DNA of 64,000 bases from a virus. The notes below the pieces were generated by a model. It was given only the letters and a program-made list of their open reading frames with translations. It was not told the DNA's origin and made no database searches. Of this stretch, positions 932 through 63,863 are shown piece after piece (the first letter of the stretch is position 1; every line of letters begins with the position of its first letter). A program made the translations under genes and the position numbers. Where the stretch lies: IMG/VR virus record IMGVR_UViG_3300046373_000039, positions 20,284-84,283 of that record; one strand, given 5' to 3'.

Positions 932-974
932 TATACGTGTAAATTAAATATCAAGCTGAATGAAGGAGAGGGAA

Positions 975-1163
975 ATGAAGACTGAACAAGAATATAGCGA
1001 CATGGCAGACCTGCACTACGCACATCAGTTTGGTCAAGATTATGTTCGTCAAGGTTATAATAAAAATATTATTACAGAATTTGATAAAACCTTTAAGGGC
1101 GGGCATATTTACAAACAAGAGTTTGATCGTGGCGTAAAATACGAAGAAACAAAATTTAACTAA
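975..1163 (+). CDS. hypothetical protein
   Basis: ORF with AAGGAGAG SD upstream of ATG 975. Confidence 0.7.
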   Translation: MKTEQEYSDMADLHYAHQFGQDYVRQGYNKNIITEFDKTFKGGHIYKQEFDRGVKYEETKFN

Positions 1164-1180
1164 ACCCGAGGAGAAATAAA

Positions 1181-1354
1181 ATGAACACACTAATCCAATA
1201 CGTAGTAGCAGATGAACAAAACGTGTACGCTAGTGCATCAACTCGTAAAGATGCCCGTACATATCTCAAAACTGTAAAGCAAGAACTTGGTAAAACCACA
1301 GCTAAGATTTATCAGCAAGAGTTTCTACTTTTGTCTGAAAAGCAGGTTCGATAA
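1181..1354 (+). CDS. hypothetical protein (57 aa, not in ORF track)
   Basis: GAGGAGAAATAAA-ATG; translates as MNTLIQYVVADEQ...EKQVR. Confidence 0.7.
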   Translation: MNTLIQYVVADEQNVYASASTRKDARTYLKTVKQELGKTTAKIYQQEFLLLSEKQVR

Positions 1355-1355
1355 G

Positions 1356-1583
1356 ATGGGCACCATCCGCATTACTGAAACATCCCGTACAAGCGAACTA
1401 TCCTCAACAGTTGAATATGAATTCAGTGACTTCCAAGATTATATTTCTTGGCGTAATCTGCAAAGTAAACAACTGAAAGATTCTCTGATGGATATCTTTG
1501 GTGGACTTGGAGATATTCCAGGGGAAGAGTCTCAGGCAGAGATTGTAGATATTTCTGTTGGGAAGAAACCTACGAAACATTAA
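1356..1583 (+). CDS. hypothetical protein
   Basis: ATG immediately after the previous stop (MGTIRITET...). Confidence 0.65.
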   Translation: MGTIRITETSRTSELSSTVEYEFSDFQDYISWRNLQSKQLKDSLMDIFGGLGDIPGEESQAEIVDISVGKKPTKH

Positions 1584-1597
1584 TTGAGGAGAAATAA

Positions 1598-1891
1598 ATG
1601 CTAGAAGAAGTAATGCAATACATTGAGTTAATTCCAGAGTTCAAACCAGTTGTACGTAAAGTGCTTGATGGTCTGAAAGCTTATGAAGAAGAGTGTAACG
1701 AGATTACAGACTTTGTAATTGACCGTACAGTTGCTAACAAAGTTAAAATGTACAAAGCTTTCCAAGCTGCTGGTATTAGTGATGATCATTCGTTGGTTCT
1801 GACAGTGAACACTTATCAGCAGTTTGAGAAAACTGCAAAAGAATTTGGTAAGAATATTTCGGCTAACAAAGCGGATAAGATTGCTAAATAA
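1598..1891 (+). CDS. hypothetical protein
   Basis: ORF with GAGGAGAAA SD. Confidence 0.75.
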   Translation: MLEEVMQYIELIPEFKPVVRKVLDGLKAYEEECNEITDFVIDRTVANKVKMYKAFQAAGISDDHSLVLTVNTYQQFEKTAKEFGKNISANKADKIAK

Positions 1892-1957
1892 ACGAGTCTT
1901 AAAATACTCAACGTAATAGTGAACTAAATTAATACACACCAAAATAGAGAGAAATAA

Positions 1958-2650
1958 ATGACTACTTCTGTAATTGTAAAACAACTTCCTAAGTCTGGTA
2001 CTCTGGAAACCTTTAACGTGTACATCTTGAACACGCCTGTGTTCTATGCGAAAGTGCATGACGTGAAGTTTAAATATCAAAGCACTACTGATAAAGAATA
2101 CAGCCTCACTCCTTTTGTAGACGAGGAGACAAAAGACAGGCTGCTAGACGAAGTTATGTTGAACAAAACTTTTGCCCAAGTTGGTAAGGATAAAACATCA
2201 AAGGCGCCGCGGCGCATCAAGTATCCTCTGTCTTCACAAGTTGAAGAGGGCAAGACAAACTATGATGTAGTTGATGGTTTGTTTGGCTTCACTGTAGCAA
2301 AACCTGAGTTCAGCAAGGCCGGTAACAAGATGTCAGTCAATGTTATTGACAAAGATGGTCAAGCGTTCACAGCCGATATCGGCAATGGGTCTGTATGTAC
2401 TCTGAAACTTTTTGGTTACAAAAACGTTGAAGGTCAACTGACGGTTACGTTGGACACTGTACAGGTCATTGAACATGTACCTTATGAAAGCAAAGGCGGT
2501 GACGGTAGCGTTGAAGATGAGGTTCTGGGTAACTACAAGGTTAAGAAGGCTGAGCCTAAAACAAATGAAGAGGAAGCTCCAGCACCAAAGACTAAAGCGG
2601 CACTAGAGCCTGTAGCGATTGACGAAGAGGAAGACCCACTTCCATTCTGA
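1958..2650 (+). CDS. ssb: single-stranded DNA-binding protein (T7 gp2.5-like OB fold)
   Basis: IGNGS..LKLFGY...LDTVQVIEHVPY core and an acidic tail ending DEEEDPLPF. Confidence 0.8.
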   Translation: MTTSVIVKQLPKSGTLETFNVYILNTPVFYAKVHDVKFKYQSTTDKEYSLTPFVDEETKDRLLDEVMLNKTFAQVGKDKTSKAPRRIKYPLSSQVEEGKTNYDVVDGLFGFTVAKPEFSKAGNKMSVNVIDKDGQAFTADIGNGSVCTLKLFGYKNVEGQLTVTLDTVQVIEHVPYESKGGDGSVEDEVLGNYKVKKAEPKTNEEEAPAPKTKAALEPVAIDEEEDPLPF

Positions 2651-2697
2651 TCTAAAACAAGGTACATGGATTGTGCCACTTATTTAAGGAGAGATTT

Positions 2698-2859
2698 ATG
2701 CAACTATCTGAAAGTGAGTTACTTAGTCTATTTGTGAAACGATATACTGAAATGAAAGGTAAGCAACGAAATGATCGACGAGATTACAAACCAGTTGAAG
2801 AAGCGCTGGATGCATTTGTAACCAAGTTTAAAGAAATCAATTCAACTCGATACATTTAA
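2698..2859 (+). CDS. hypothetical protein
   Basis: AAGGAGAG SD, ATG 2698. Confidence 0.6.
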   Translation: MQLSESELLSLFVKRYTEMKGKQRNDRRDYKPVEEALDAFVTKFKEINSTRYI

Positions 2860-2869
2860 GGGGACAAGC

Positions 2870-3001
2870 ATGACTGAAGCAACCTTGAACACAGAATCAC
2901 AAACACTGAAGAATTTATATGATGCACTTGATAAAGCAATTGCAAGTGAACAAGCGGATTTGATTAATGTGCTGAGTTCAGCAATTCAACGACTACGATA
3001 A
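2870..3001 (+). CDS. hypothetical protein (43 aa, not in ORF track)
   Basis: AAGGGG SD; MTEATLNTESQ...IQRLR fills the gap exactly. Confidence 0.6.
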   Translation: MTEATLNTESQTLKNLYDALDKAIASEQADLINVLSSAIQRLR

Positions 3002-3012
3002 GGAGAAATACA

Positions 3013-3288
3013 TTGGAAACTATGATGCACATTGGTGCAAAGCTTGATAAAGAAACAGCAGATAATGCTTCAAATGCAATTGAGCAAATCTTGAAGGCAG
3101 CCTTTGAGTATCGCAGTAGCGATAAAGTTTTGCTGAAGAGTTTGGATGTGCTTAAAGCTGCTGTTACTGTACAAGGTGTTAATATTAGTGGCTGTACATT
3201 TGATAATGATCAGAGCAAAAAGGTTATTATTGAAGTCCTCTCTGATTACACAATACCTAATAGCAGTGCTGTAGAATACAAACTTTAA
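3013..3288 (+). CDS. hypothetical protein
   Basis: AAGGAGAAA SD. Confidence 0.7.
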   Translation: METMMHIGAKLDKETADNASNAIEQILKAAFEYRSSDKVLLKSLDVLKAAVTVQGVNISGCTFDNDQSKKVIIEVLSDYTIPNSSAVEYKL

Positions 3289-3298
3289 GGAGAAACAA

Positions 3299-3556
3299 AT
3301 GATTACCGAACGAGAACTATACGACCGTCTTGTAGACCTAGAAACTCAAAAGCTTACTCTTACTGCTGACATCAATGCTTTGAAAGCTGACAGTAAGTAT
3401 AGTGAATATGATAATCCAAAAGGCTTGGCAAAAGAAGATATTAAGAATATTCATGGTGCCAGCAAGCTTCGTGCAAAGGCTGACTACGAAGAGAAGAAAG
3501 AAGCTGCTCAAGCTGTGTTCAAGAAGTATGAAGAACTTGAGCAATATAATGACTGA
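3299..3556 (+). CDS. GapR/DUF2312-like small DNA-binding protein
   Basis: LYDRLVDLETQKLTLTADINALKADSK...GLAKEDIKNI..SKLRAK follows the helical pattern of DUF2312/GapR and T4 DsbA-like proteins. Confidence 0.55.
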   Translation: MITERELYDRLVDLETQKLTLTADINALKADSKYSEYDNPKGLAKEDIKNIHGASKLRAKADYEEKKEAAQAVFKKYEELEQYND

Positions 3557-3569
3557 TAAGTAATATTGA

Positions 3570-3595
3570 GGGGAGCTTTTTGCTCCCCTTTGTTT
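3570..3595 (+). terminator. intrinsic terminator
   Basis: GGGAGC-ttttt-GCTCCC followed by ctttgttt. Confidence 0.65.
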
Positions 3596-3610
3596 AAGTG
3601 GGAGAAATAA

Positions 3611-4678
3611 GTGAGTGATAAATACGAACTAGTCTTACTGGATGCTGACACTCCGGTCTTTAAAGCTGCAAAGTCTGTGCAACAAGATTACATTATCGTA
3701 AGCCGTAAATCTGATGGCGCAACTAAACGGTATAAGAACAAAACTGAATTCTGGGGACACCACAAAAAGAAAGAGGGTGGTGAGCTTGCAAAGAACAATC
3801 TTATTCGTATTGAGAGAGGACTTGAGCCAAATAAACCAGAAGATTATGAAGTAGAAGAGTGTGCTGAATTGGTACCTGAAATTGAGGATCATGTAGCAGC
3901 AGGAGTAGAACAGTTTGACCGATTTGTAGGTAAAATTAAGGGATTAAACCTTGCTCAAGACTACAGGCTAGGCATTGGTGGGAATGGTAACTTTCGCTAC
4001 GAAATGTCTCAACAATTGCCCTATAAAGGGGCTAGGAAGGACAAGCCTTTATTGTTCCTTGAAATTAAAGAAGCCATTATTAAAAAGTATCGAAACAAAG
4101 TTGTAGTGGTTGATGATGAAGAAGTAGATGATTGGTGTTCAATCAAGGGTTATGAGAACTACAAACATTTTCTTAAAACAGGTAAGTGGAAATATGTTCT
4201 TGGGTTCTTGGATAAAGACATCAAACAAGTTATTTCTCCTCAGTTCAACTTTGATGATCAGTTTCCAGAAGTGATTATTCCAACCCCGTTTGATGCTGCT
4301 AAATGTTTTGCAAGCCAATGCCTAAGCGGGGATCTGTCCACGGACAATATTCTTGGACTTCCTAACTTTACAAAAGAGATTCAAGAGAAATATAAGTTAG
4401 GTGGAACTCGTGGAATTGGTAAGGCTACTGCTCTGAAGTACCTTGAATCGGCAACAACTATCAAAGAGTTGTTTGAACGAGTTGTTGAGGCTTATAAGAG
4501 CTATTACGGAACACAGAAGCAAGAGCTTGTCAGTCACACAGGACAGTGCTTGATGTGGGATTGGTTGGACTTTTTGCAAGACAATGCTCAGCTTCTCTAC
4601 TTGCGAAGAGAGGAAAGCGAGATGTATCATATTTGTACTACATTAGATAAATTAGGGATTGATTATGGAGTTGATTGA
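3611..4678 (+). CDS. 5'-3' exonuclease (T7 gp6/FEN-like)
   Basis: LLDAD, NFR...YKGAR, EVDD, DKDIKQ, GDLSTDNILG and GIGKATA motifs. Confidence 0.9.
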   Translation: MSDKYELVLLDADTPVFKAAKSVQQDYIIVSRKSDGATKRYKNKTEFWGHHKKKEGGELAKNNLIRIERGLEPNKPEDYEVEECAELVPEIEDHVAAGVEQFDRFVGKIKGLNLAQDYRLGIGGNGNFRYEMSQQLPYKGARKDKPLLFLEIKEAIIKKYRNKVVVVDDEEVDDWCSIKGYENYKHFLKTGKWKYVLGFLDKDIKQVISPQFNFDDQFPEVIIPTPFDAAKCFASQCLSGDLSTDNILGLPNFTKEIQEKYKLGGTRGIGKATALKYLESATTIKELFERVVEAYKSYYGTQKQELVSHTGQCLMWDWLDFLQDNAQLLYLRREESEMYHICTTLDKLGIDYGVD

Positions 4679-5399
4679 CAGAAAAACGGCATTAGATTTA
4701 GGGTTAACCACTTATTTCACCGGTAAGGCTTGTTTGAAAGGACACATTACAGTGAGACGTGTGGGTTGTGGTAGTTGCATTGAGTGTCGTAGAATCAGAA
4801 CTAAGAGGTGGCGAGAAGAGGGTAAACAGACAGAATTTGTTCCCGCAGGCAAGCCTTTACCATCCCAAGAGTTTTTAAGGGAATGTTTTGATTATATTTT
4901 TGAGACAGGTCAATTAATTTGGAGGACTAGACCGAGGCATCATTTTGCAACTCAACGAGGTTGTAGTACAGCCAATTCTAGGTTTGCTAATAAAGTTGCT
5001 GGACACTATCACAGCAGGAATGGATACCTTGAAATTAGATTTGATAAAAATCTATATAAGGGACATAGGATTATCTATAAACTTTTGACTGGAGAAGATC
5101 CTGAAGGCATGCTTGACCACATTGATGGTGATGTATCTAACAATAGAATAGAAAATCTTAGGGCTTGCACTGCACAAGAAAATGCCAGAAACTCAAATAA
5201 GAGGTCGCAGAAAGGTAAAGCAACGAGTGTATACAAAGGTGTTAATAAACATAGAAATCTTTGGAAAGTTACATTGACCATAAATGATAACGAGGTGAAG
5301 ATAGTCAGAACTTTTAAAACTGAGATTGAAGCTGCGCTATGTTACGACGAGCTGGCTAAAGAGCATTATGGAGAATTTGCACAGTTGAATTTCCCATGA
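4665..5399 (+). CDS. HNH homing endonuclease (N-terminal Zn-binding module, C-terminal AP2-like)
   Basis: YFTGKACLKGH...CGSCIEC; HRIIY...LDHIDGDVSNNRIENLR; YKGV...EIEAALCYD...GEFAQLNFP. Confidence 0.9.
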   Translation: MELIDRKTALDLGLTTYFTGKACLKGHITVRRVGCGSCIECRRIRTKRWREEGKQTEFVPAGKPLPSQEFLRECFDYIFETGQLIWRTRPRHHFATQRGCSTANSRFANKVAGHYHSRNGYLEIRFDKNLYKGHRIIYKLLTGEDPEGMLDHIDGDVSNNRIENLRACTAQENARNSNKRSQKGKATSVYKGVNKHRNLWKVTLTINDNEVKIVRTFKTEIEAALCYDELAKEHYGEFAQLNFP

Positions 5400-6004
5400 C
5401 ACTTCCAACCCAAGCTGACATTGACAAACGTAAAGCTAATCTTGAGAAATTCCTAAAAGAAATTGATCCCATGACAGGGAAGTCACATGAGAAGAGTATG
5501 GTCAGTGTTGTACGTTCATCTATTCGTAAAGCGTGGATGCGTTCACCTACAAAGCTAGCTTACTTGTATATGAAGACAGAGCCTGACATGGACCCTAACA
5601 CTCGCACGAAGTGGAAAGTTATGTGCGAGTGTTGTGGGAACTACTTCAAGATCAATGAGGTTGAGTGTGACCATATTGAAGGACACAACACATTCACCAA
5701 AGTATCAGATTTTCAAACTTACTTTGACAGTATCTTGATGGTTGGATTTGATGGCTTGCAAATTTTGTGTTCTGAGAACTGCCACCCCACAAAGACTTTG
5801 GCAGAAAAACTTGACATATCTTTCGAATCTGCTAAAATTGAACGTGAAGTAATTAAAATCTGTAAACTGAAAGCATCAGAAATTGATTCTTGGCTAAAAG
5901 AGCGTAGTGTTGTAGTAGCTAAGAATCCAAAAAGCAGACGTGATGCTGTTCGTAAAGTGCTAGAAGAGGAGATGAAAAATGAGTCAAGTTTATGTAGTAA
6001 CTAA
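5396..6004 (+). CDS. HNH-type endonuclease (conserved, next to exonuclease; possible resolvase)
   Basis: CECC...VECDHI...LQILCSENCHPTKT zinc-binding HNH fold. Confidence 0.75.
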   Translation: MTLPTQADIDKRKANLEKFLKEIDPMTGKSHEKSMVSVVRSSIRKAWMRSPTKLAYLYMKTEPDMDPNTRTKWKVMCECCGNYFKINEVECDHIEGHNTFTKVSDFQTYFDSILMVGFDGLQILCSENCHPTKTLAEKLDISFESAKIEREVIKICKLKASEIDSWLKERSVVVAKNPKSRRDAVRKVLEEEMKNESSLCSN

Positions 6005-6149
6005 CCCAGAGCTTGGTTGGGATTGTGTCGTAGCTGTATTCAAGTGTGACGATGTTTCTAAAGAAAGTATTAAAAAGGTCTTTTCAGAAGATATCTATGT
6101 AATCCATTGTCCTCAAGAAGTTCATAAAGATACAGGAGAATTCCAATGA
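5979..6149 (+). CDS. hypothetical protein (56 aa)
   Basis: GAGGAGAT SD; MSQVYVVTNPELGWDCVVAVF... Confidence 0.65.
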   Translation: MSQVYVVTNPELGWDCVVAVFKCDDVSKESIKKVFSEDIYVIHCPQEVHKDTGEFQ

Positions 6150-6319
6150 GCAAGCTAAGTAAAGAGACTATGTACACAGAACTGAGTATTCAAATTGGTT
6201 CATTGACTGCAAAGGTTGATAAGATTTTGGAACTACTTCTTGAAGATCAGAAACTTTACACTATCAACCAGACAGTAAATATTCTTGATGATGAGAAGTT
6301 TCGTGAGGAGTTCAAATAA
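6146..6319 (+). CDS. hypothetical protein (57 aa)
   Basis: AGGAGAA SD; ATGA overlap with the previous gene. Confidence 0.6.
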   Translation: MSKLSKETMYTELSIQIGSLTAKVDKILELLLEDQKLYTINQTVNILDDEKFREEFK

Positions 6320-6434
6320 TGATGCTTAAAGATCGATTCACTCTTTCGACCTATATTGAGATGTCAGTTCAATACTATACATTCTTCTATGTGTGGGCTT
6401 GCCAATTCCAACCTACAATTCTTGGGTTTTAGCT

Positions 6435-6653
6435 ATGGGAGACGTCAGGGAGTTATTTCCTAAGAAGGTTGATAAGGTTACTGTTGAAGTAGATCCTCTT
6501 ACATACTGGAAATTGCGTAATGAAGTGATTTCTGATGAATTTATTAAATACAATGCCTACGAGAAACAAGAGATTCTTGATACGGTGCTTCAGATGAACT
6601 TGGAGCTTTACGGATTAGTTATTAAATTGAAGGAGAGATTAAATGAAAACTGA
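6435..6653 (+). CDS. hypothetical protein
   Basis: ORF in the + strand operon; start uncertain. Confidence 0.55.
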   Translation: MGDVRELFPKKVDKVTVEVDPLTYWKLRNEVISDEFIKYNAYEKQEILDTVLQMNLELYGLVIKLKERLNEN

Positions 6654-6858
6654 AATTTTAAATAATGGTGAACCTTTTCCTCTTAATTTTAATAAGATTG
6701 ATGAAATTATTATTTGTCATGGTGCTGTTCAATGTTTTCGAAGTGGAAGCTGTTATGCCACATATTCATTGAGTATGTTTTAAGAAGACAGTACACAAAC
6801 AATTTCTATTAAAGATGAGGAGTGATTGGTTTGAAACATTTGATCATTGTTGGTAAAG

Positions 6859-7329
6859 ATGACAGCAACAACTGAACGAGTATGTAAAAATTGTGAAGTT
6901 ATTTTTACTAGGGTAGTCAGAGCCGCACAGTTGTTTTGTTCGGCTGATTGTAGGAAGAAATATTGGAACAAACAGTGTTCAGACTCCAGCCACAAATGGC
7001 ACAAAAACAATCCAGAAAGAGTGATGTTACGATCAGCTAAACATAGAGCTAAGAAACAAGGGGTGGCTTTTGATTTGGTCTTAGGGGATATCGTAATACC
7101 GGAATATTGTCCTGTGCTAGGCATCAAACTAGAATGTAATGCAGGTAATGGAGGAGCTAAACAGAACTCACCATCTCTGGATAGAATAGTCCCCGCTCTA
7201 GGTTATGTGAAAGGTAATATTCAGGTTATGAGTCATTTAGCAAATGTAATGAAACACGATGCAAACCCTGAGCAACTTCTTAATTTCGCTGCTTGGGTTA
7301 TTGAAACTTACCGAGGAGAAACAAATTGA
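6859..7329 (+). CDS. HNH-like endonuclease with N-terminal Zn finger
   Basis: CKNC...FCSADC; PEYCPVLG...SPSLDRIVPALGYVKGNIQVMSHLANVMK. Confidence 0.8.
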   Translation: MTATTERVCKNCEVIFTRVVRAAQLFCSADCRKKYWNKQCSDSSHKWHKNNPERVMLRSAKHRAKKQGVAFDLVLGDIVIPEYCPVLGIKLECNAGNGGAKQNSPSLDRIVPALGYVKGNIQVMSHLANVMKHDANPEQLLNFAAWVIETYRGETN

Positions 7330-8102
7330 GTTCACGTATTTTAGTAATTCCAGACGCACAAGTAAAAGACGGCGTAGACATCGAACACCTGAAGTGGTGT
7401 GGAGAATATCTTGTAGAAAAGAAGCCGGACACAGTTGTTTGTTTAGGCGATTTCTGGGATTTTGAGAGCCTTTCTTTCTACGACAAAGGGACTCTTTCTT
7501 TTGAAGGTCGCCGCCTTAAGAAAGATATTGATGTTGGTAAAGAAGCAATGGAATTGATGCTTAAGCCGCTTAAAGATCTACAAGAGCGTCAACGGGCGAA
7601 TAAAAAGAAGGTTTATGAACCACGGCTTGTTTTCACTCTTGGTAATCACTGTGAACGATTGATGCGAGTTCCTAAAAGCTCTCCTGAGTTTGCTGGTTTT
7701 ATTGGCTATGAATTGCTAGACTTAGAACGTCATGGTTGGGAAGTTTATGACTTCCTCCTTCCAGTCGAAATTGAAGGTATTTACTTTGTTCACTTCTTGG
7801 CTAACCCAATGACTGGTAAGCCTTATGGTGGTACAGCAACGAGCATGCTGAAGAACGTTGGTAAGAGCTTTGTTCAAGGTCATAAACAAACTTTAGATAT
7901 TGCTGTACGACCTACGATTGATGGTAAGATGCAGATTGGCATCATTGCCGGTGCGTTCTATCAACACGAAGAAGCCTACAAGGGTTATACCGGAAATAAT
8001 CACTGGAGGGGTATGGTTATGCTAAATAATGCTAAGGATGGTTATGCTGATCCATGTTTTATTTCGATTGACTACCTTAAAAAGAAATACGGGAATAAAT
8101 AA
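7326..8102 (+). CDS. calcineurin-like metallophosphoesterase
   Basis: IPDAQ, LGDFWD, LGNHC, FVH and QGHKQ motifs. Confidence 0.9.
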   Translation: MSSRILVIPDAQVKDGVDIEHLKWCGEYLVEKKPDTVVCLGDFWDFESLSFYDKGTLSFEGRRLKKDIDVGKEAMELMLKPLKDLQERQRANKKKVYEPRLVFTLGNHCERLMRVPKSSPEFAGFIGYELLDLERHGWEVYDFLLPVEIEGIYFVHFLANPMTGKPYGGTATSMLKNVGKSFVQGHKQTLDIAVRPTIDGKMQIGIIAGAFYQHEEAYKGYTGNNHWRGMVMLNNAKDGYADPCFISIDYLKKKYGNK

Positions 8103-8103
8103 A

Positions 8104-8367
8104 ATGGAAAACTATGTACTATATCACCCAAAAGACGCAGTTACCTTTACGCTAGCTCAGTCTGAAGACTACCTGCGACTACAGCATGAACTTGAAACCA
8201 AAGGATGTGAATACGAAGTCAAAGAGTGGGGCCGTACATTCGACCAAGTAAACTGTGAATATGTGCCAACAATCCGTGTATACGAAGATGAGCGGTTTGT
8301 AGACTATACTGCGAATTACTTCAACACTTTTGATAAGATTAAAGCTGGACATTTCAAGGAGATTTAA
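8104..8367 (+). CDS. hypothetical protein, possibly glutaredoxin-like fold without CxxC
   Basis: 87 aa; YVLY...LETKGCEYEVKE...YVPTI resembles the Grx topology. Confidence 0.45.
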   Translation: MENYVLYHPKDAVTFTLAQSEDYLRLQHELETKGCEYEVKEWGRTFDQVNCEYVPTIRVYEDERFVDYTANYFNTFDKIKAGHFKEI

Positions 8368-10437: not shown

Positions 10438-10438
10438 A

Positions 10439-10995: not shown

Positions 10996-11004
10996 TAAGG
11001 AGAT

Positions 11005-55981: not shown

Positions 55982-56010
55982 AGCGACAGATTAACACAAA
56001 GGAGATTAAG

Positions 56011-56415: not shown

Positions 56416-56703
56416 ATGAGTTATCTAAATGCTTTAGAAGTTCTTAAAGAGCACTTGGTTATGCCAGAAGACTTGACAGAGTGCAAATGGTTTCATGATA
56501 CACAATCTAATTCTGTGAGCTGGACCAGTGAAGAAGATATTGATATGCTTTATGATGGTGCTGGCGAAACTTTTTCAGAGGCTTCACTTGAAGGTGTTGT
56601 TGAAATAGATGGATATGTTTTGTTTACTCTATCAGATTCTTGTGGTGGAAGCGGTCAAGTAATATTTTTAGCAAGTAATAAGGTGGAGTGCCCTTATGAG
56701 TGA
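56416..56703 (+). CDS. hypothetical acidic protein
   Basis: AAGGAGAG SD. Confidence 0.7.
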   Translation: MSYLNALEVLKEHLVMPEDLTECKWFHDTQSNSVSWTSEEDIDMLYDGAGETFSEASLEGVVEIDGYVLFTLSDSCGGSGQVIFLASNKVECPYE

Positions 56704-56974
56704 AAAGAAGCCGAAGGAAATTAAAGTTACAGTGGTTGATTATACCACTTTTACAAGTTATGACTTTCAGGAACCAGCAGTTTGGTGGATTCTTTCGGCA
56801 ACAGGGGATTACTACTACTTCCATTGCGCTAAACGAGAAGATGCACAATTGAAATGTGATGAAATGTTTGATAAGGGGTTTTACAAAGTTAAGACGAGCC
56901 GTATTATTAAAACTAAATCATCATTAGAGAGTGGTGGGTATAGCTGCACAGGTGTGGGGAGCCGTAAAAAGTGA
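56696..56974 (+). CDS. hypothetical protein
   Basis: GGTGGAG SD. Confidence 0.7.
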   Translation: MSEKKPKEIKVTVVDYTTFTSYDFQEPAVWWILSATGDYYYFHCAKREDAQLKCDEMFDKGFYKVKTSRIIKTKSSLESGGYSCTGVGSRKK

Positions 56975-57378
56975 AATATAAATACGCACTAGCCTTGATG
57001 GATATGACATGTAGGTTTGGAGAAACCTCAGAAGCTAAACGTCTTCAAGTTGGCGCAATGATCTATAAGAATGATTCTTGCATAAGCCTTGGGACGAACG
57101 GCCAGCCACCTAAGTGGCAGACAGAGGTTTGTGAGGATGAGTATGGGCAAACATTACCAACTGTACGTCATGCTGAAGCTGCTGCGCTAGAGAAACTTTA
57201 TCTCAGCACTGAAACATCAGAAGGTGCTGAGATGTTCATCAGTCACAGCCCTTGTTTGAATTGTAGTTTGAAAATAGTAGCTGCAAAAATTAAACGAGTG
57301 TGGTATCGTAACGAATATAGGACAGTTGAGGGTTCAGCATACCTCAAAAGTCAAGGTGTAAAAGTAATCAAAATTTAA
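56971..57378 (+). CDS. dCMP deaminase
   Basis: RLQVGA, GTNG.P, HAE, SPCLNC zinc motifs. Confidence 0.92.
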   Translation: MKYKYALALMDMTCRFGETSEAKRLQVGAMIYKNDSCISLGTNGQPPKWQTEVCEDEYGQTLPTVRHAEAAALEKLYLSTETSEGAEMFISHSPCLNCSLKIVAAKIKRVWYRNEYRTVEGSAYLKSQGVKVIKI

Positions 57379-57390
57379 AGGAGAACTTAA

Positions 57391-57660
57391 TTGAAAGATC
57401 AACAAGGTAATGAAATTAAAATTGGAGTTGCTTATCAGTATGTTTTTGGCATGCCTGGTCCTGATGTCACATGTCTAGTTGTTGAAAGTATTAATGAGGA
57501 CGGTACAGTTAATACTTATGATGTTTCATTCAAAATGAAAGTTGATAATGTAAAGACAGAGGGTCTTTGGAGACCACTCAAACACACATGGGATGCGTGG
57601 AGCACTTGGAAGAAAGAGGTTATTGAATATTGTGGTGCTCAGGCACTAGATTTGAACTAA
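57391..57660 (+). CDS. hypothetical protein
   Basis: AAGGAGAA SD. Confidence 0.7.
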   Translation: MKDQQGNEIKIGVAYQYVFGMPGPDVTCLVVESINEDGTVNTYDVSFKMKVDNVKTEGLWRPLKHTWDAWSTWKKEVIEYCGAQALDLN

Positions 57661-57672
57661 AGGAGAACCTAA

Positions 57673-58083
57673 ATGACAGCTACAGAGAACATCCTTCTAC
57701 CAGAAGAAATCATTGACACATATAAGCTTCAGTTCAAGTCTTTGACAGAATTTATGCGTGGGCTTAATTATGAATATGAAGGTCGTCTATTCGGTTCACC
57801 CCACTTTGTAAGCTACGATTACGAAAACAAAGCCCGTAAGAGTATTTCTGTGCACACTGCTTGCCTCTTGCACAATAATGCTTATAGTGATTGGCACGGT
57901 AAGGACTTCAAAGCACCATTTGACTTCAGCCACTACAAAATCCGTAAAGCTAAAGCTGCTAAGATTGTAAATATTGTGAACATCCAACTGAATAAGAAGA
58001 CTGGACACATTCGCACTACAAGCAATCTTGTAAACTTTGTAGACAAGGCTTATGAATATATGCTTTATTCTAAATATCTATGA
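57673..58083 (+). CDS. hypothetical protein
   Basis: AAGGAGAA SD. Confidence 0.75.
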   Translation: MTATENILLPEEIIDTYKLQFKSLTEFMRGLNYEYEGRLFGSPHFVSYDYENKARKSISVHTACLLHNNAYSDWHGKDFKAPFDFSHYKIRKAKAAKIVNIVNIQLNKKTGHIRTTSNLVNFVDKAYEYMLYSKYL

Positions 58084-58096
58084 GGGGGTACCTTAT

Positions 58097-58285
58097 ATGA
58101 ATCGTGACAGAGTTTATTTATTCCAAGATGGTAATTGGTGTTGGTGTGATGAGTATTCTTATGAGCGATATGCTGGACAGAAGTATCAAGAGATTGTCTT
58201 AGGTCAGGGTTGGAATGATAATGAGGTCAGTAGAATGCTTCAGAGTTATCATGAAGAGAATCTATCAACTTTTGAAGATGAATAG
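58097..58285 (+). CDS. hypothetical protein
   Basis: GAGGGGG SD (MNRDRVYLF...). Confidence 0.6.
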   Translation: MNRDRVYLFQDGNWCWCDEYSYERYAGQKYQEIVLGQGWNDNEVSRMLQSYHEENLSTFEDE

Positions 58286-58294
58286 AAATTTATG

Positions 58295-58329
58295 GAGCAG
58301 CTAGTCCTTGTGATTGGCTGCTCTTTTTG
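58295..58329 (+). terminator. intrinsic terminator
   Basis: GAGCAGCTA...TGGCTGCTC followed by TTTTT. Confidence 0.65.
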
Positions 58330-58365
58330 TTAATATGGATTTATAAATTAATTAGGGGGTTTTAG

Positions 58366-58902
58366 ATGGATATGTTAGACAAGGCTATTTGTTTCTGTAG
58401 GGCTGCTCATTGTGCAGTGGGCCAGAAACGTAAGTATACGGGGGAGGATTATTATCACCACCCTGAAGATGTCGCTACGATTGTGGCTGGGGTTCTTGGT
58501 CCTAAAGCTACTCATGAGATTTTGTCAGCAGCTCTTATGCATGATGCCTGTGAAGATACGAGTATCACATTAGAATTTATTGAAAACAACTTGAGTAAAG
58601 AAGTGGCCATTCTTGTTGAAATGTTGACAGATATATCAAAACCAGAAGATGGTAATCGAACCCAACGAAAAGAAATTGATCGCAAGCATACAGCTTTAGC
58701 CAGCCCTGATGCTAAAACAATCAAGCTTGCAGACTTAATTTCAAACAGTAAATCAATCTGTGAACATGACAAAGACTTTGCAAAGGTTTATATCAAAGAA
58801 AAAGAGTTGCTACTTGAAGTGTTGAAAGAAGGTGATCAGACTCTTTGGGACCGAGCTAATGAAATTGTGCAGAAGGCTAAAATTGAATTGGGGATTAAAT
58901 AA
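58366..58902 (+). CDS. HD-domain hydrolase, SpoT/Mesh1-like (small alarmone hydrolase family)
   Basis: AH..QKRKYTGEDY..HP..VA, AALMHDACEDT, V..LTD, IKLADLISN. Confidence 0.9.
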   Translation: MDMLDKAICFCRAAHCAVGQKRKYTGEDYYHHPEDVATIVAGVLGPKATHEILSAALMHDACEDTSITLEFIENNLSKEVAILVEMLTDISKPEDGNRTQRKEIDRKHTALASPDAKTIKLADLISNSKSICEHDKDFAKVYIKEKELLLEVLKEGDQTLWDRANEIVQKAKIELGIK

Positions 58903-59255
58903 TGGCTCTGTGCAGATGGTCTAGTATGAACTGGTCCTGTGACCTATATATTTATGAAGGTTGTGATGGATACTGGCATACACATGTTGCTGGTAATCGT
59001 ATCGTAGGGATTGTTCCAGAAGTAGATAACACAATATTTCATAAAGACGTTTACACTGAAGAATTGGGTAAGATTTGGGCACAGCAACACAAGGCTCAAA
59101 TGACTTTCCTAGAATCATGTGAACGTAAACCAATTGGTTTGAAATATGATGGACAGAGTTTTGTTGATGACAAGGAAAGCCTACTGAGTCGTTTACAGAC
59201 TCTTAGGGATCACGGTTATAATTTTCCAGAGATTACTGAGGAGGATCTTGAGTGA
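58902..59255 (+). CDS. hypothetical protein
   Basis: Coupled to the HD gene; MALCRWSS..CDLYIY. Confidence 0.75.
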   Translation: MALCRWSSMNWSCDLYIYEGCDGYWHTHVAGNRIVGIVPEVDNTIFHKDVYTEELGKIWAQQHKAQMTFLESCERKPIGLKYDGQSFVDDKESLLSRLQTLRDHGYNFPEITEEDLE

Positions 59256-59443
59256 CTAAAGACAAACTGACAAAAGAACTTGAATTCCTGAAACGTGATC
59301 TTGATAAGTGTGATCGTCGTTGTAAGCGTATATCTAAAGCTTGTGGTATTGAATCAAATGAGTTGATTGCATATGCTGCACAACAGACGGAGGAAGTGCT
59401 ACGATACATTGAATCACTAAAGCAACAGGAACCTAAAACATAG
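59252..59443 (+). CDS. hypothetical protein
   Basis: GAGGAGG SD. Confidence 0.6.
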   Translation: MTKDKLTKELEFLKRDLDKCDRRCKRISKACGIESNELIAYAAQQTEEVLRYIESLKQQEPKT

Positions 59444-59477
59444 TCTCGCTGAGGAAGCCCCTCAAGGACAAACCAAA

Positions 59478-59762
59478 ATGAATATTTCTTCTGTAAAGCT
59501 TATCCTGACAATATCCTTGACTGTTGTGATAACAGGCTGTACAATTGCCCCACCAAAGCAGAATGTTGTTATCACATCGCCAATGTATAACAGATGGCAT
59601 GATGCTGTGTTCAAAGAATGTCAATCTAAAGCTTGGGATGTTACACGAGAGCTTGTGATTGAGAAGTCTAAGGAAGGTTATAGCTTTACAGAAGAAGATG
59701 TTAATAATATTCATAGCTATTTGGTTAAGAAATGTTCTATGAATAGCGGGATAACGATTTAA
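59478..59762 (+). CDS. putative lipoprotein
   Basis: Signal peptide with lipobox ITGC. Confidence 0.7.
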   Translation: MNISSVKLILTISLTVVITGCTIAPPKQNVVITSPMYNRWHDAVFKECQSKAWDVTRELVIEKSKEGYSFTEEDVNNIHSYLVKKCSMNSGITI

Positions 59763-59773
59763 GGAGTTGTAAG

Positions 59774-59962
59774 ATGAAGTGGGTTAGAGTAGAAGATGTA
59801 GATTTTTGTGAGTGGATATATTCTGGAACAGAGTTCTTATCTCCTATAGCAAAGAGTCATAGTCTTCATTGCTGGGAGGAACAATTTGAACTGAACGATA
59901 CACTATACAAACTATCTGGCTCATTTAGTGCAGATGACTATATCGTGGAGGAGTGGAAATGA
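59774..59962 (+). CDS. hypothetical protein
   Basis: AAGGAG SD. Confidence 0.65.
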   Translation: MKWVRVEDVDFCEWIYSGTEFLSPIAKSHSLHCWEEQFELNDTLYKLSGSFSADDYIVEEWK

Positions 59963-60309
59963 CACATCTAGTACCAATGAGTGAAGAACAACGAGAGCAG
60001 ATTAAACAGAAACGTATTGCTGACCAAGAGTACGCTAAGGCTAATCTGAAGACAGACTATGCAGACGAGAAGTTCTGGAAAGATAGGGGCAGCGAGCTTG
60101 GTATTCGTTTCCCCGGCTGGTGGATTAAGGGTAGTGAAGTTAAATACATTCGTAGAGCTTGTAAGAAGCTTGGTGTTGAAGTGTCAGACTACGTTGACAG
60201 CACTGGCTTTAAGAATCTGAATGAATTCTCTGCACACAACCCTAAATTAAACGCTGTTTGTATGGTCGGATTAGTGATCGAGTATTATCTAGGCCGAGAT
60301 AGCTTGTAG
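59959..60309 (+). CDS. hypothetical protein
   Basis: GGAGGAG SD. Confidence 0.7.
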   Translation: MTHLVPMSEEQREQIKQKRIADQEYAKANLKTDYADEKFWKDRGSELGIRFPGWWIKGSEVKYIRRACKKLGVEVSDYVDSTGFKNLNEFSAHNPKLNAVCMVGLVIEYYLGRDSL

Positions 60310-60377
60310 AAATCAAATGAAATGGGTAAAGTTGTCGTAGTTTTACCCTATTCTAGACGAGTTAATGAAAACAAGCT

Positions 60378-60406
60378 TGACAGGTACAGGTTAGGATGAT
60401 ACAATA
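60378..60406 (+). promoter_or_regulatory. sigma70-like promoter
   Basis: TTGACA-N17-TACAAT with extended TG. Confidence 0.75.
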
Positions 60407-60624
60407 TGTTTGTTATATGAATTTTACCGATTGTTTTAGGAGAGAAATATGTTATTTATAATCTATTTGATTGCAAGCTTGCTCGTTTGCTATACTCACG
60501 CACATGGTTGTCTTGTAAGAGGTATCAAATATCCTTGGAAAGAGGATATTATACTCTGCCTATTGTGGCCTGTGGTTGTCCCATTGGGTATTTTTGTAAT
60601 TATTGCTTCTGAAGGTAAGCCATA

Positions 60625-60831
60625 ATGATCAAATCACACGAAGATCAGTTCCAGACATTCCTATCCATTGCACAGTCTTGGGGAATGAATGTTGAGCTAC
60701 ACCCTACACTAGATAAATATTTCCAAGACTTGAACACCCAAGGAGCTTGGATGATGTTCACCAATGCTTATTGGAAGGGTGTTATGGACGCTGACACTGA
60801 ACGACGAGAGAAGGGGATTTATTATGCTTAA
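60625..60831 (+). CDS. hypothetical protein
   Basis: AAGGT SD. Confidence 0.6.
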   Translation: MIKSHEDQFQTFLSIAQSWGMNVELHPTLDKYFQDLNTQGAWMMFTNAYWKGVMDADTERREKGIYYA

Positions 60832-61342
60832 GTGGGTTAAGAGTTTGTTTGGTAGTACTCGTGGTTATGAAGAAGGTTATACAGTACTTCCTGAAGTGCA
60901 TAACATTCCGCGGATGCCTAAAGTTAAACCACCAAAGGGAAGTGATATCTCTGAGCCTGTGATTTCTTTTCTAGAAACTGTACGTAAAAACCCTAAGAGA
61001 TTTAAGGTGGGGGTTGATTGCAGCAGTTACACAGTACGTTCTGTTGAAGAAAAACCAGATTACAAGGCATACAAGATTTGGGATAATAAATTAGAAAAAG
61101 GATGGTATGTAAGAGGTTCTAGGTGGATTGCATCTTCAGTATTTTTATTAGAACATATTAATCCTTTACTTTGTGTTTATGAGGATGCATTCTTTATCAC
61201 ACCAGACGAAAAAGAATATCTAATCAAAGAAATCTCAAGCATCATGAACTATCGAATTGATCGTAAAGCAAAACTAGACAAGATTCGTGCAGACAGACGT
61301 ATCCGAGATACACGTAATAAACTTAAGGAACTATACAAATGA
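60824..61342 (+). CDS. hypothetical protein
   Basis: AAGGGG SD, ATG 60824. Confidence 0.7.
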   Translation: MLKWVKSLFGSTRGYEEGYTVLPEVHNIPRMPKVKPPKGSDISEPVISFLETVRKNPKRFKVGVDCSSYTVRSVEEKPDYKAYKIWDNKLEKGWYVRGSRWIASSVFLLEHINPLLCVYEDAFFITPDEKEYLIKEISSIMNYRIDRKAKLDKIRADRRIRDTRNKLKELYK

Positions 61343-61575
61343 GCAATCACATCAAAGTACGTACAATTAATGGGGTCGTATCATTCTACACAGCACAAGA
61401 TGGAGTTGTATTGAAATCAATCTCATCTATTCGCTTTGCAGATGTTGAGAATGCTGTCTTTAGTCTTGTTAAGAAAGATGGTGAGTATTACACATACCTT
61501 CCACAGCGAAATATGCAGCTTGTAAAGCTTGCTGAGGCTGTCGAGAAAGGTTATATTATGTTTAAGGTGAGTTGA
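61339..61575 (+). CDS. hypothetical protein
   Basis: AAGGA SD. Confidence 0.65.
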   Translation: MSNHIKVRTINGVVSFYTAQDGVVLKSISSIRFADVENAVFSLVKKDGEYYTYLPQRNMQLVKLAEAVEKGYIMFKVS

Positions 61576-61576
61576 C

Positions 61577-61765
61577 ATGAAATACTACCAAGCTGTATAC
61601 CAAACAGATTCACACGGGTTCCATGTTGTCTATTCTAAGAATATTTGGACAAAAGAGGAAGATGCACGAGAATACTTGTATGAATTGAGTAGTATTCTTC
61701 ACGGAGAAAGTGGCTCATTTATGTATGAGTCTTGGGTGCGTGAACTGTATGTTAACACCCCTTAA
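61577..61765 (+). CDS. hypothetical protein
   Basis: AAGGTGA SD. Confidence 0.65.
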   Translation: MKYYQAVYQTDSHGFHVVYSKNIWTKEEDAREYLYELSSILHGESGSFMYESWVRELYVNTP

Positions 61766-61977
61766 TGTCAAAGCGTGACTTAAAACAACCAAGTGTTCCA
61801 CCCTACTATAGAAAGCTAGCGGCCTCACTTAACCCAGACCATCCAGATACACCCCTTCTAGCAAGTCAATATTTAAAATATGCTGATGATTATCAGAAAG
61901 AAGAGGAAAGATTGCTGTACAAGTGGAAGAAGGCTAGCTATAATCGGGGTGTTGGTAAAACCAAGAAATTTAAATAG
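61765..61977 (+). CDS. hypothetical protein
   Basis: TAATG coupling to the previous gene. Confidence 0.6.
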   Translation: MSKRDLKQPSVPPYYRKLAASLNPDHPDTPLLASQYLKYADDYQKEEERLLYKWKKASYNRGVGKTKKFK

Positions 61978-61986
61978 GAGGAGGAA

Positions 61987-62268
61987 ATGAAACGTGAAAA
62001 CAAAGGATACTCAAATGTAGTAGGTAACGATATCTACAACCACTATGGCCTATTCTTCTGGCAAACGTGCTGGTTCTGTGATAAAGACTTTAGACGTGAA
62101 GCTGGATATAGGTTTCAAGTGCAGTATAATCGCCCTTGGGTGTATTCTTGCTCAGATTGTTCTTGCTCTAAATCACATTGTAATGAGAATGTGACAGTAC
62201 ATAAGCTGAATATGCGTAAAGGGTACGTTCCTGTACCACCACCTATGAGGACTTATCGTAATGACTGA
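61987..62268 (+). CDS. Cys-rich hypothetical protein
   Basis: AGGAGGAGG SD; CWFC...CSDC. Confidence 0.7.
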   Translation: MKRENKGYSNVVGNDIYNHYGLFFWQTCWFCDKDFRREAGYRFQVQYNRPWVYSCSDCSCSKSHCNENVTVHKLNMRKGYVPVPPPMRTYRND

Positions 62269-62436
62269 TCAAATCATTATAAAGAAAGGTAGGGTTAGGA
62301 TAAAACAAGGTTATGCCGGAATTTACATCGTTGAATGTAGACTAAGTTGGTGGCTACCATTTTGGTGGGATATGGGTCATACTACTTATTTAGATGTTGC
62401 TGAGAATCACATAAAGTGGATTGAAGAGAATATTCT

Positions 62437-62718
62437 GTGACTGAACCTCTATGCACATGTGGTAAAAGACCTAAACATAAATGCTCTGAGGAGTCTAGAG
62501 TGGGTGGTAAGATGTGTTTGAGGGAGTTGGAAGAGGATCTAAGGGAAAGTTTGTTTAAGAAAATTGCATATGGAGTGTCAGATACTGAGATTTCTGATAA
62601 GGATAAAGATATTGTCAGTAAGACAACACTTATGCATATTCTAGAACAGAAAGAAGCTTATAGAGGAAAGAACAATGAATCAAACAATAGAAGAACGTAT
62701 GCAAAACGTAGAAGATGA
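62437..62718 (+). CDS. hypothetical protein
   Basis: CTCG...C...C ORF in the operon. Confidence 0.55.
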   Translation: MTEPLCTCGKRPKHKCSEESRVGGKMCLRELEEDLRESLFKKIAYGVSDTEISDKDKDIVSKTTLMHILEQKEAYRGKNNESNNRRTYAKRRR

Positions 62719-62828
62719 ACTTAAACAACTTCGTAAAGAGATGGAAGAGAGTATTGCACGGTATAATAGGCCTATAGTGCCACTCACCGACCTAGAAATA
62801 AAGTCACACTTTGCTGAGAGACGTAGAA

Positions 62829-63053
62829 ATGAAAACTAATTGGATACCACGTAAACCACTAACACAAGATGAATTAAACATCTTAGTAGCCTCTGTACAT
62901 TTACGATCAACACCAGAGGATCCTTGTGCCAAATATCCACAAGTGTTAAAGATGCAGAGTATGTACAGGGCTAAGTTTGGGGAGGGTCAATTATATAAAG
63001 ATTATAAACTTGCACAAGAGAGACTAGGGAAGAATGAAAGTACGATCAGTTGA
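62829..63053 (+). CDS. hypothetical protein
   Basis: ORF preceding the RepL-like gene; start uncertain. Confidence 0.55.
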   Translation: MKTNWIPRKPLTQDELNILVASVHLRSTPEDPCAKYPQVLKMQSMYRAKFGEGQLYKDYKLAQERLGKNESTIS

Positions 63054-63585
63054 AACAAGGCACGAAGGTCTTACAGTGTTTGACTCTGAGACAGGAGAGA
63101 TTCTATACCAAAAGAAACCTAAACCTGTGAAGCGTGGAACATTCGATAAGTATGTAGGTATTGATACCAAATATCCTGAAGACTGCATCACTAAAGATAG
63201 TTTGTTGGAAACCCTATCTGTAATGGATGGATATCTTAAAGAAAAGCCATACCTGACTTCACACAATATGCTAGATGCCTTGAATCAAAACTTACTTACT
63301 CCTATGGAGATTAAACTCCTAACCCACATCATCACAAACCTAACAGGTTGGAATATCTATATCGGCACAGTTAAAGATTTGTGTGCTTGTGGTATTCAAG
63401 AGAACAACTTATCAAGGTTGATTAAGGGATTAGAGCCTAATGGCTTGAGAGTGAAGAGTAGGAACAAGCCATTCAGAGGTGATATTGTTATTGAAGTGAG
63501 TCCTGTATACGGATGGAAAGGTGATATTAGGTATCGAGAAACAAGAGTTAATAGTTGGTATGGTAATGGAAAAGTGATAGACTAG
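63034..63585 (+). CDS. RepL-like winged-helix DNA-binding protein
   Basis: N-terminal DSETGEI, central LTPMEIKLL, HTH-like NLSRLIKGL, C-terminal VSPVYGWKG as in RepL/phage replication-associated proteins. Confidence 0.6.
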   Translation: MKVRSVETRHEGLTVFDSETGEILYQKKPKPVKRGTFDKYVGIDTKYPEDCITKDSLLETLSVMDGYLKEKPYLTSHNMLDALNQNLLTPMEIKLLTHIITNLTGWNIYIGTVKDLCACGIQENNLSRLIKGLEPNGLRVKSRNKPFRGDIVIEVSPVYGWKGDIRYRETRVNSWYGNGKVID

Positions 63586-63631
63586 GGTGAATTCCTCATT
63601 GGTGAGGAATTGGTATAGCTGAAAGCCTTTA

Positions 63632-63660
63632 TTTACAAGAGGTGCTTGATCTACTATACT
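63632..63660 (+). promoter_or_regulatory. sigma70-like promoter
   Basis: TTTACA-N17-TATACT. Confidence 0.65.
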
Positions 63661-63689
63661 TATTATAAACAAGATGTCAGGAGAGAAAT

Positions 63690-63863
63690 ATGAACATAGG
63701 AGAATTGAAAGAACTTATCAAGGATCTTCCAGATGAGATGGAAGTGTGTAGCTGCTGTGCAAGCCCTATTAATGATCCTAGTAGAGCTTGGGTGTCTGAA
63801 GAAGATTATTATGACGAAGAAACAGATAGTTTTGTAGATATTACCATTGTCAGAATTCATTAA
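63690..63863 (+). CDS. hypothetical protein (57 aa, not in ORF track)
   Basis: AGGAGAG SD; MNIGELKELIKDLPDEMEV... Confidence 0.7.
   Translation: MNIGELKELIKDLPDEMEVCSCCASPINDPSRAWVSEEDYYDEETDSFVDITIVRIH

Follow-up and report, generated by a model that had tools for sequence, protein, structure and literature searches.

In bacteriophage T4, ribosome sites differ between expression classes: early genes are marked for the RegB/S1 endoribonuclease by GGAG with an A-rich spacer behind it, and late messages escape (PMC1702504, PMC3014915). The bacterial alpha-r14/NfeR1 and 'cuckoo' (CcsR) RNAs represent another described system; they have two to four adjacent hairpins with CCUCCUCCC in each loop and freely varying stems, and the redundant loop motifs of NfeR1 silence mRNAs by covering their ribosome sites (PMC10746234, PMC4615179). 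The stretch considered here, called the window, comprises 64,000 nucleotides (bases 20284-84283 of the 84,283-bp phage record IMGVR_UViG_3300046373_000039 from IMG/VR). Its genes use ribosome sites written in two dialects, apparently according to expression class, the sequence GGAGA being frequent outside the virion genes and rare among them, and its minus strand carries an array of hairpins with pyrimidine loops at 49076-49289. The explanation favoured below, at a probability of about one half, is class-specific tuning of initiation in cis, predating the hairpin RNA.

The record has direct terminal repeats and is rated complete. Genes for the large terminase (TerL), the major head protein (MCP), the tail sheath and ribonucleotide reductase (RNR) were found, and this uncultured phage is a member of the broad Felix-O1/Pakpunavirus-like group of myoviruses. 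Even the nearest cultured phages are only remotely related: TerL shares 45% identity with that of Pseudomonas phages (34-45% across the phage matches listed), the best MCP identity is only 38%, to Limnohabitans phage DC31, and megablast of 6.1 kb returned no close cultured relative. No relative of the MCP occurs among the 185,579 species genomes searched for a host. The genome consists of four strand blocks, given here, like all positions below, in window coordinates. E1 (-19800 to -5840) has 47 small genes on the minus strand and lies wholly ahead of the window. M runs along the plus strand from -5706 to 15151, with 1-15151 inside the window, and is devoted to replication and nucleotide metabolism, as judged from the RNR subunits and Pfam families. 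L, on the minus strand (15271-50360), contains 42 virion, lysis and tRNA-proximal genes, and E2, on the plus strand (50909-63863), small early-type genes.

A preliminary description, made from the letters of the window without database searches, had proposed that the ribosome site encodes the temporal class of a gene and is the target code of an anti-Shine-Dalgarno (anti-SD) RNA formed by the array. The first part of this proposal stands in so far as site sequence tracks gene class; the second finds no support in the comparisons between genomes described below. The counts rest on 171 genes called by a codon-usage score, with starts picked by coding score together with the energy of the duplex formed with a generic anti-SD tail of 9 nt. 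This rule makes no difference between GGAGA, GGAGT and AGGA and is thus blind to the motif. A recognisable Shine-Dalgarno (SD) sequence (GGAG, AGGA, GAGG or a weaker G-rich site) precedes 152 of the 171 genes, leaving 19 without any; these are ordinary SD sequences, purine-rich matches to the 16S tail located 5-12 nt before the start, and the generic tail pairs with both dialects. All 30 plus-strand starts listed in the preliminary description have GGAGA beginning 6-12 nt upstream, at -10 or -11 in 26 cases. The systematic count gives 28 rather than 30, because the caller missed the gene at 1181 and preferred alternative starts elsewhere, ranking 14103 marginally above 13782, and 11008 above 11005. 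By the Fisher test then suggested, GGAGA is found in 28/76 plus-strand versus 3/42 minus-strand genes of the window (p=3.7e-4). Over the whole genome the figures are 44/129 non-late versus 3/42 late genes, or 44/128 versus 3/42 with a second caller (odds ratio, OR, 6.8; p=3e-4), block by block 13/47 in E1, 19/39 in the whole of M, 12/43 in E2 and three of the 42 genes of L. The pattern GGAGA-N4-7-ATG occurs 33 times in the window (28 plus, 5 minus) against 7.9 +/- 2.6 in 100 dinucleotide shuffles, none of which reaches 33.

The two dialects differ in both core and context. In the putative pre-replicative genes, that is, the two small-gene blocks and the block for replication and nucleotide metabolism, the preferred site is GGAG with A as the next base, at a distance of 10-11 nt from the start; virion and lysis genes prefer an A-rich leader with AAGGA(A/T), or GGAGT. 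The fifth base of GGAGN sites is A in 44/65 non-late cases; among the 13 late ones it is A in 3 and T in 7, the latter being the seven GGAGT sites of L. The commonest early sites are GGAGA followed by an A-rich spacer. AGGA-type sites without GGAG precede 16/42 late versus 22/128 non-late genes, and AAGGAA is the strongest late marker in four genomes (28/175 late versus 13/509 non-late, p=3e-9). The other SD assignments made earlier, AGGAA for the MCP, AGGAT for the sheath and GGAGT for TerL and a 620-aa tape-measure-like gene, match those found here. A TTGGAG context, seen at 33/509 non-late and 0/175 late sites of genomes G000-G003 (G000 being the present one), represents a second early-type context besides (T)GA/(T)AA-GGAGA.

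Such a split could be an artefact of strand composition, gene calling or post-hoc choice of motif: the plus-strand blocks are purine-rich (GC skew +0.15 to +0.22) and GGAGA was picked after the sequence had been read. This explanation is hardly credible. Minus-strand early genes also carry GGAGA, and E1, on the same strand as L, differs from it (13/47 versus 3/42, p=0.014), which rejects a strand effect. Composition is rejected as well, since each of the four blocks has 0.67-1.0 GGAGA per kb of coding strand away from starts; the A content of the 8 nt before the start is equal in both classes (0.44 versus 0.42). In an unbiased scan of 5-mers at -18 to -4, GGAGA was the top discriminator of 49 tested (46/128 versus 3/42; p=1.7e-4, or about 0.008 after multiplication by 49). 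As a check on circularity in start calling, three start rules were compared and agree, the other two giving 46/129 versus 5/42 (any candidate start, an upper bound; p=0.003) and 29/129 versus 2/42 (longest open reading frame), and the split is replicated in 10 of 11 other genomes of the clade introduced below. Pooled over its 12 genomes, the class effect holds in all four strata of the gap to a same-strand upstream gene and in two of three strata of gene length (below 80 aa, OR 1.74, p=0.1), by which gene size and packing are rejected as causes; sites in a free spacer of 5-20 nt show it most strongly (88/180 versus 9/133, OR 13). The split is thus independent of strand, composition, gene length and packing.

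The clade, made up of uncultured phages, was recovered from IMG/VR with the MCP and the 131-aa protein encoded next to the array (48654-49049). Eleven further genomes of 78-92 kb were passed through the same pipeline, their late block being set by blastp to the late proteins of the present genome. Three of them align to it by blastn over just 14-22% of its length, so that their ribosome sites are largely independent samples of sequence. The counts of GGAGA, non-late versus late, are 44/128 versus 3/42 in the present genome (G000), 47/129 versus 4/42 in G001, 44/112 versus 4/50 in G002, 34/140 versus 6/41 in G003, 44/152 versus 3/21 in G006, 42/126 versus 6/48 in G007, 45/134 versus 9/46 in G010, 36/101 versus 7/48 in G012, 38/113 versus 7/48 in G013, 56/154 versus 10/45 in G014 and 42/116 versus 7/43 in G015; G011 has no split (28/109 versus 13/44). 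The direction is the same in 11 of the 12 genomes, with p<0.05 in 7, and the Mantel-Haenszel OR of 2.76 (p=8e-15) falls only to 2.6 (p=1.4e-12) when the present genome, among the most extreme of the 12, is set aside. The GGAGA split is therefore confirmed as a conserved feature of this soil and freshwater clade. The earlier claim that site and class go together has thus survived systematic counting, extension to E1 outside the window and transfer to 11 of the 12 genomes.

Every member of the clade that could be examined has the array, which makes the co-occurrence of array and split uninformative, and more distant phages without it were therefore tested. These are seven outgroups lacking clustered pyrimidine-loop hairpins, phiPsa374 being screened by pattern only; KPP10, in which late and other genes occupy a common strand block, was excluded from the class tests, and seven open reading frames at 1-4110 of DC31, which have no site at all in a region where the record annotates two coding sequences, from the counts for that phage. 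Three outgroups in which no array was detected show the split: DC31 (17/85 versus 2/33), Salmonella phage Felix O1 (26/85 versus 5/37) and Rheinheimera phage Barba8S (27/84 versus 8/54). They share the strand-block layout of the present phage, the direction and size of its GGAGA split (pooled log OR 1.00 +/- 0.30 versus 0.91 +/- 0.13 in the clade) and its late AAGGA style; they differ in that no clustered hairpins were detected in them, and DC31 also in having GGAGT as common as GGAGA on non-late genes. The preliminary description had taken equally strong bias in relatives without the RNA as evidence against a target code and as a sign of strand or composition bias instead. The first consequence follows from these three relatives; the strand or composition account is rejected by the data given above. 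In Felix O1 (NC_005282), the minus strand at 10840-12044, opposite early plus-strand genes, contains short pyrimidine runs in three pairs spaced about 560 nt from one another; they are probably the complements of repeated units made of a G-rich leader and an AGGAGA site.

The array itself is, judging from its predicted fold and its conservation, a real structured RNA. It has three hairpins whose pyrimidine loops each contain UCUCC; a hairpin of 8 bp precedes them, and a long one stands immediately ahead of the 131-aa gene; the minus-strand fold has a predicted energy of -71.5 kcal/mol for 251 nt (z=-5.75). Just upstream on the same strand are genes for tRNA-Arg(tct) and tRNA-Gly(tcc) (49297-49451), and upstream of these a sigma70-like match (49591-49619) with a perfect -35 hexamer, a 17-nt spacer and a TG-extended -10. 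The downstream 131-aa gene has an AGGAA-type site and belongs to no PHROG family, and tblastn of its protein against cultured phages gave no match; it served as the anchor in searching for the array in 40 other phage contigs. Two of these loci (L052 and L057) were excluded from the array survey as their upstream sequence is too short. Of the 38 anchor loci having enough upstream sequence, 26 yielded pyrimidine loops on folding, 68 in total; in the other 12 a pattern search placed the array at a greater distance upstream, beyond an inserted gene, or just past the end of the stretch retrieved. Altogether the array is seen at 37 of 38 judgeable loci, the lone miss (L029) arising in a stricter scan though folding had found three loops there, and in all 12 whole clade genomes. 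There are two to four hairpins per genome, with the same pyrimidine-loop motif in adjacent hairpins; the commonest loop 7-mer, CUCUCCU (45/68 loops), is the exact complement of AGGAGAG.

The transcribed strand may be read from the stems. In G000-G003 the long stems have no common sequence, apparently through compensatory change under constant loops, and contain 1-3 G.U pairs each on the tRNA strand; these would be A.C mismatches on the other strand, which points to transcription from the tRNA strand. In the clade, tRNA genes are often directly upstream of the array on the same strand, and sigma70-like matches lie 200-300 nt upstream of it in six loci and in this window. A CsrA sponge of the CsrB/RsmZ type, with GGA loops on the opposite strand, was also considered and ruled out: no Csr/Rsm family matches at gathering score or at E up to 1, the G.U pairs become A.C, and the tRNAs and promoter matches are on the pyrimidine-loop strand. 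Nor is the array simply the leader of the 131-aa gene, since in some relatives (loci L030, L032-L036, L042 and L066) one or more genes (1.2-2.9 kb) are inserted between the two. In G011 (about 37980-38190, plus strand; loci L127/L064) it takes the form of a stand-alone unit in which a sigma70-like match precedes two hairpins, the second followed by a U run; the loops have a canonical CCUCC-type motif instead of CUCUCCU.

Relatives of the 47700-51000 stretch were found in sequencing runs from soil, snow and leaf litter. In a soil RNA library (X5), contigs cover parts of 47700-51000, including part of the array; these contigs give no strand, ends or level, and may stem from DNA carry-over. The interval of about 460 nt that separates tRNA-Met from the 131-aa gene (48195-48653) lacks an open reading frame, is 90-99% conserved in soil DNA and RNA contigs and has no Rfam match except an antisense echo of the tRNA.

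The array resembles the alpha-r14 RNAs in having two to four adjacent hairpins with the same anti-SD-like pyrimidine loop motif, varying stems, a sigma70-type promoter and, in G011, a terminator hairpin. Its core (49137-49252, minus strand) aligns end to end with Rfam family RF02344 (ar14), over model positions 1-123 of 123, with E=0.064 over 2.9 kb and 0.0072 over 321 nt. The score, however, is 24.9 bits against a gathering score of 58.8, and no Rfam family matches the array at gathering score; its loop motif is CUCUCCU and not CCUCCUCCC, a 9-mer also missing from the CCUCC-type loop of G011; and the array is phage-encoded beside tRNA genes, whereas the family is found on bacterial chromosomes of Alphaproteobacteria. 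Failing both the motif and the score of RF02344, it is not filed as a member. The word 'phage' does not occur in the cuckoo RNA paper, and among the matches listed in a literature search on anti-SD phage small RNAs, as far as titles and the openings of abstracts tell, there is no phage-encoded anti-SD hairpin RNA. In Firmicutes, unpaired C-rich loops of the Staphylococcus aureus RNAIII and Rsa RNAs pair with G-rich ribosome sites of several mRNAs; these RNAs differ from the array in their UCCC motif, in being host-encoded with single targets studied, and in having no known link to phage temporal classes. The records of the TerL relatives contain 'putative antisense RNA' features, which reportedly stem from transcriptome work on PAK_P3.

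Given such loops, the array might act, as the preliminary description supposed, as a trans-acting anti-SD small RNA whose loops pair with (A)GGAGA(G) and shut down early and middle translation as the RNA accumulates, virion genes escaping through their avoidance of the motif. In its fuller version, a phage 'cuckoo-like' RNA made with the tRNAs would accumulate and occlude more than 40 early and replication (A)GGAGA(G) sites while AAGGA virion genes stay translated, the dialect being older (Felix O1) and the RNA having evolved to read it. The model is doubtful, and its fuller version equally so. It can draw on a conserved array with CUCUCCU loops complementary to AGGAGAG on freely differing stems, on the design shared with the alpha-r14/NfeR1 and cuckoo RNAs, and on the weak full-length Rfam match. 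The energies of loop-to-site hybridisation, a check proposed at the outset, agree with it: non-late sites are predicted to pair better with one loop (medians -9.1 versus -6.7 kcal/mol; area under the curve, AUC, 0.73), the loops separate the classes better than the 16S tail does (AUC 0.73 versus 0.59 here; 0.60-0.73 in 11 of 12 genomes), and shuffled loops perform as well in just 3 of 200 cases.

Against a target code stands, above all, the equally strong split in the three relatives without a detectable array. Conversely, G011 has the RNA, with its CCUCC-type loops, but no split, and its own loops give an AUC of 0.52. Loops and sites do not co-vary, as a 12 x 12 matrix of loop-by-site energies shows no own-genome advantage, and the 7-mer AGGAGAG is not enriched among the GGAGA sites of the first four clade genomes, at 37/169 versus 15/48 in the array-less phage UAVern. 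The array is located, with the tRNAs, behind an early-type sigma70-like promoter match, so that late timing is not evident. One RNA would, moreover, need to titrate more than 40 mRNA sites, and host mRNAs could equally be its targets. These comparisons accordingly lend no support to the idea that GGAGA serves as the target code of the array, which is left with a low probability.

A mechanism like that of T4, in which a phage nuclease acting with ribosomal protein S1 cuts GGAG with an A-rich stretch in early mRNAs and late sites escape, has in its favour that T4 offers the one documented class-specific SD code, late GGAG sites not being cut (PMC1702504, PMC3014915). The most frequent early sites here, in which an A-rich spacer comes after GGAGA, are similar to the T4 consensus GGAGAAUAAAA, and GGAG sites within 2 mismatches of this consensus (GGAGRAYARAA) number 17/65 non-late versus 1/13 late. 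In three relatives the same count gives 16/65 versus 2/9, 16/62 versus 2/9 and 10/67 versus 1/10; the mean mismatch is high (3.2 here, 3.2-3.6 overall) and in the relatives little different from that of late sites, and an A-rich spacer is expected of any good ribosome site. RegB (PF10715) has no match in the 84-kb genome at E up to 10, and the Pfam families shown for the 128 non-late proteins, 25 of 38, include neither an RNase nor a ribosomal protein. A RegB-like mechanism is, on these grounds, quite improbable. The present system differs from T4 in further respects: here the classes are told apart by the A that comes after GGAG, late genes have AAGGA or GGAGT, and the split extends to the replication block; it is known from sequence, that of T4 from cleavage.

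The split might also reflect history and not function, virion and early modules each keeping an ancestral site style without selection on class-specific use. The virion genes are far more conserved, with MCPs 83-97% identical across the nine loci found; DNA alignable by blastn is mainly in the virion block, with scattered pieces elsewhere; and DC31, Felix O1 and Barba8S have the same late AAGGA style. The effect peaks, however, in the free 5-20-nt spacers, where drift would erase it fastest. In the related Pseudomonas phages GGAGA is equally frequent on late and early genes, which shows that the sites of late genes do vary between lineages, and the three GGAGA genes in the virion block are exactly those behind sigma70-like matches. 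Module history is thus an unlikely account.

Class-specific tuning in cis, the favoured explanation, would make the dialect a property of the mRNAs, selected separately for each expression class and tuning the initiation of that class by the host 30S subunit. A dedicated trans-acting reader would not be needed, and the split would be older and wider than the hairpin RNA. We infer that the blocks correspond to temporal classes and that class-specific tuning of initiation is the selective cause. Promoter-like matches bear on the first point. Sigma70-like matches (at least 10 of 12) occur on the coding strand at 1.1 per kb in E1, 0.8 in E2, 0.5 in M and 0.25 in L, a density 2-4 times higher in the GGAGA-rich blocks than in the virion block. 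Inside L, matches with a perfect -35 hexamer are found in four places, namely ahead of the gene at 49806, of the tRNAs and the array, and of the gene at 43206, and within the tape-measure-like gene, and the three GGAGA genes of L are all downstream of sigma70-like matches. This distribution fits a role of GGAGA as a mark of host-polymerase-driven, pre-replicative expression, with the proviso that the scans report consensus matches, which number 8 in 47600-51100, below a shuffle mean of 10.4.

Several points weigh against this explanation. The labels early, middle and late derive solely from promoter-like matches, gene content and synteny, and gene calls and starts come from a simple in-house caller, not a validated one. 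Three array-less Pseudomonas phages (UAVern, phiPsa374 and ventosus) have no split, and in Acibel004 it is reversed. The seven outgroups pooled give an OR of 1.41, below that of the clade (z=2.9 if genomes were independent, which they are not). This weaker bias may leave room for an array-linked component; as the clade is one lineage, it is not an independent association with the array. Pairing to the generic anti-SD tail barely separates the classes (median -7.3 versus -6.1 kcal/mol, AUC 0.59, p=0.04), so that they differ in which site is used more than in its strength. A simple account by stronger sites early is accordingly weak.

The individual GGAGA sites listed for the window all lie on the plus strand, except for three in L. 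In the part of block M that is in the window, GGAGA is found at 965-969 (start 975), 1170-1174 (1181), 1588-1592 (1598), 2688-2692 (2698), 3002-3006 (3013, TTG), 3289-3293 (3299), 3601-3605 (3611, GTG), 5968-5972 (5979), 6135-6139 (6146), 6632-6636 (6643), 7315-7319 (7326, TTG), 8515-8519 (8526), 9275-9279 (9286, TTG), 9557-9561 (9568), 10428-10432 (10439), 10999-11003 (11005/11008, the RNR small subunit), 13771-13775 (13782) and 14424-14428 (14434). The sites at the other end of the window are at 50897-50901 (50909), 52991-52995 (53002), 53625-53629 (53635), 54229-54233 (54237), 55164-55168 (55176), 56001-56005 (56011, GTG), 56272-56276 (56282), 56405-56409 (56416), 57380-57384 (57391, TTG), 57662-57666 (57673), 60439-60443 (60449) and 63680-63684 (63690).

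The exceptions on the minus strand were put earlier at two among 40 genes, those starting at 43206 and 48097, a figure that is right for the range then covered; a third, at 50360, is beyond it. The first is a 118-aa gene (site at 43204-43216) behind a sigma70-like match at 43270-43241, the promoter already ascribed to it, with a perfect -35 hexamer, an 18-nt spacer and 10 of 12 positions. Located between TerL and a tail-fibre gene, with no PHROG family, it is the only GGAGA gene in the virion module proper and looks like an early-type insert. The second, a 111-aa gene (48095-48108), is directly 3' of tRNA-Met, and the third, a 157-aa gene (50358-50372), is downstream of a match at 50824-50796. 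The latter match is inside a gap of about 550 nt between the divergent minus and plus blocks (50361-50908), a scan of which revealed no consensus-like plus-strand sigma70 match before the first E2 gene. Among the non-late proteins, Pfam matches (25 of 38 families shown for 128 proteins, not assigned to individual genes) include PhoH, an HD_4 domain, Lar restriction alleviation, a Clp-protease-like family and two HNH endonucleases.

To our knowledge, class-specific ribosome sites have been documented in detail only for T4, where they serve RegB; nothing comparable turned up in the literature searches made here, which did not target this question. A clean, replicated split in a Felix-O1-like clade and in Felix O1 itself, with no RegB, suggests that translational 'dialects' by temporal class may be commoner in lytic phages than has been supposed. 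The GGAGA/AAGGA contrast provides a simple sequence marker for sorting unannotated phage genes into pre-replicative or virion classes, and the GGAGA genes are the obvious candidates for targets of a conserved small RNA of phages whose loops are of anti-SD type. Since Felix O1 is cultured and has the split without the RNA, the ideas of a cis dialect and of an RNA reader can be separated experimentally. If the latter were true, the cuckoo-like RNA would represent an RNA-based switch from early to late translation, with base pairing in place of the RegB nuclease of T4.

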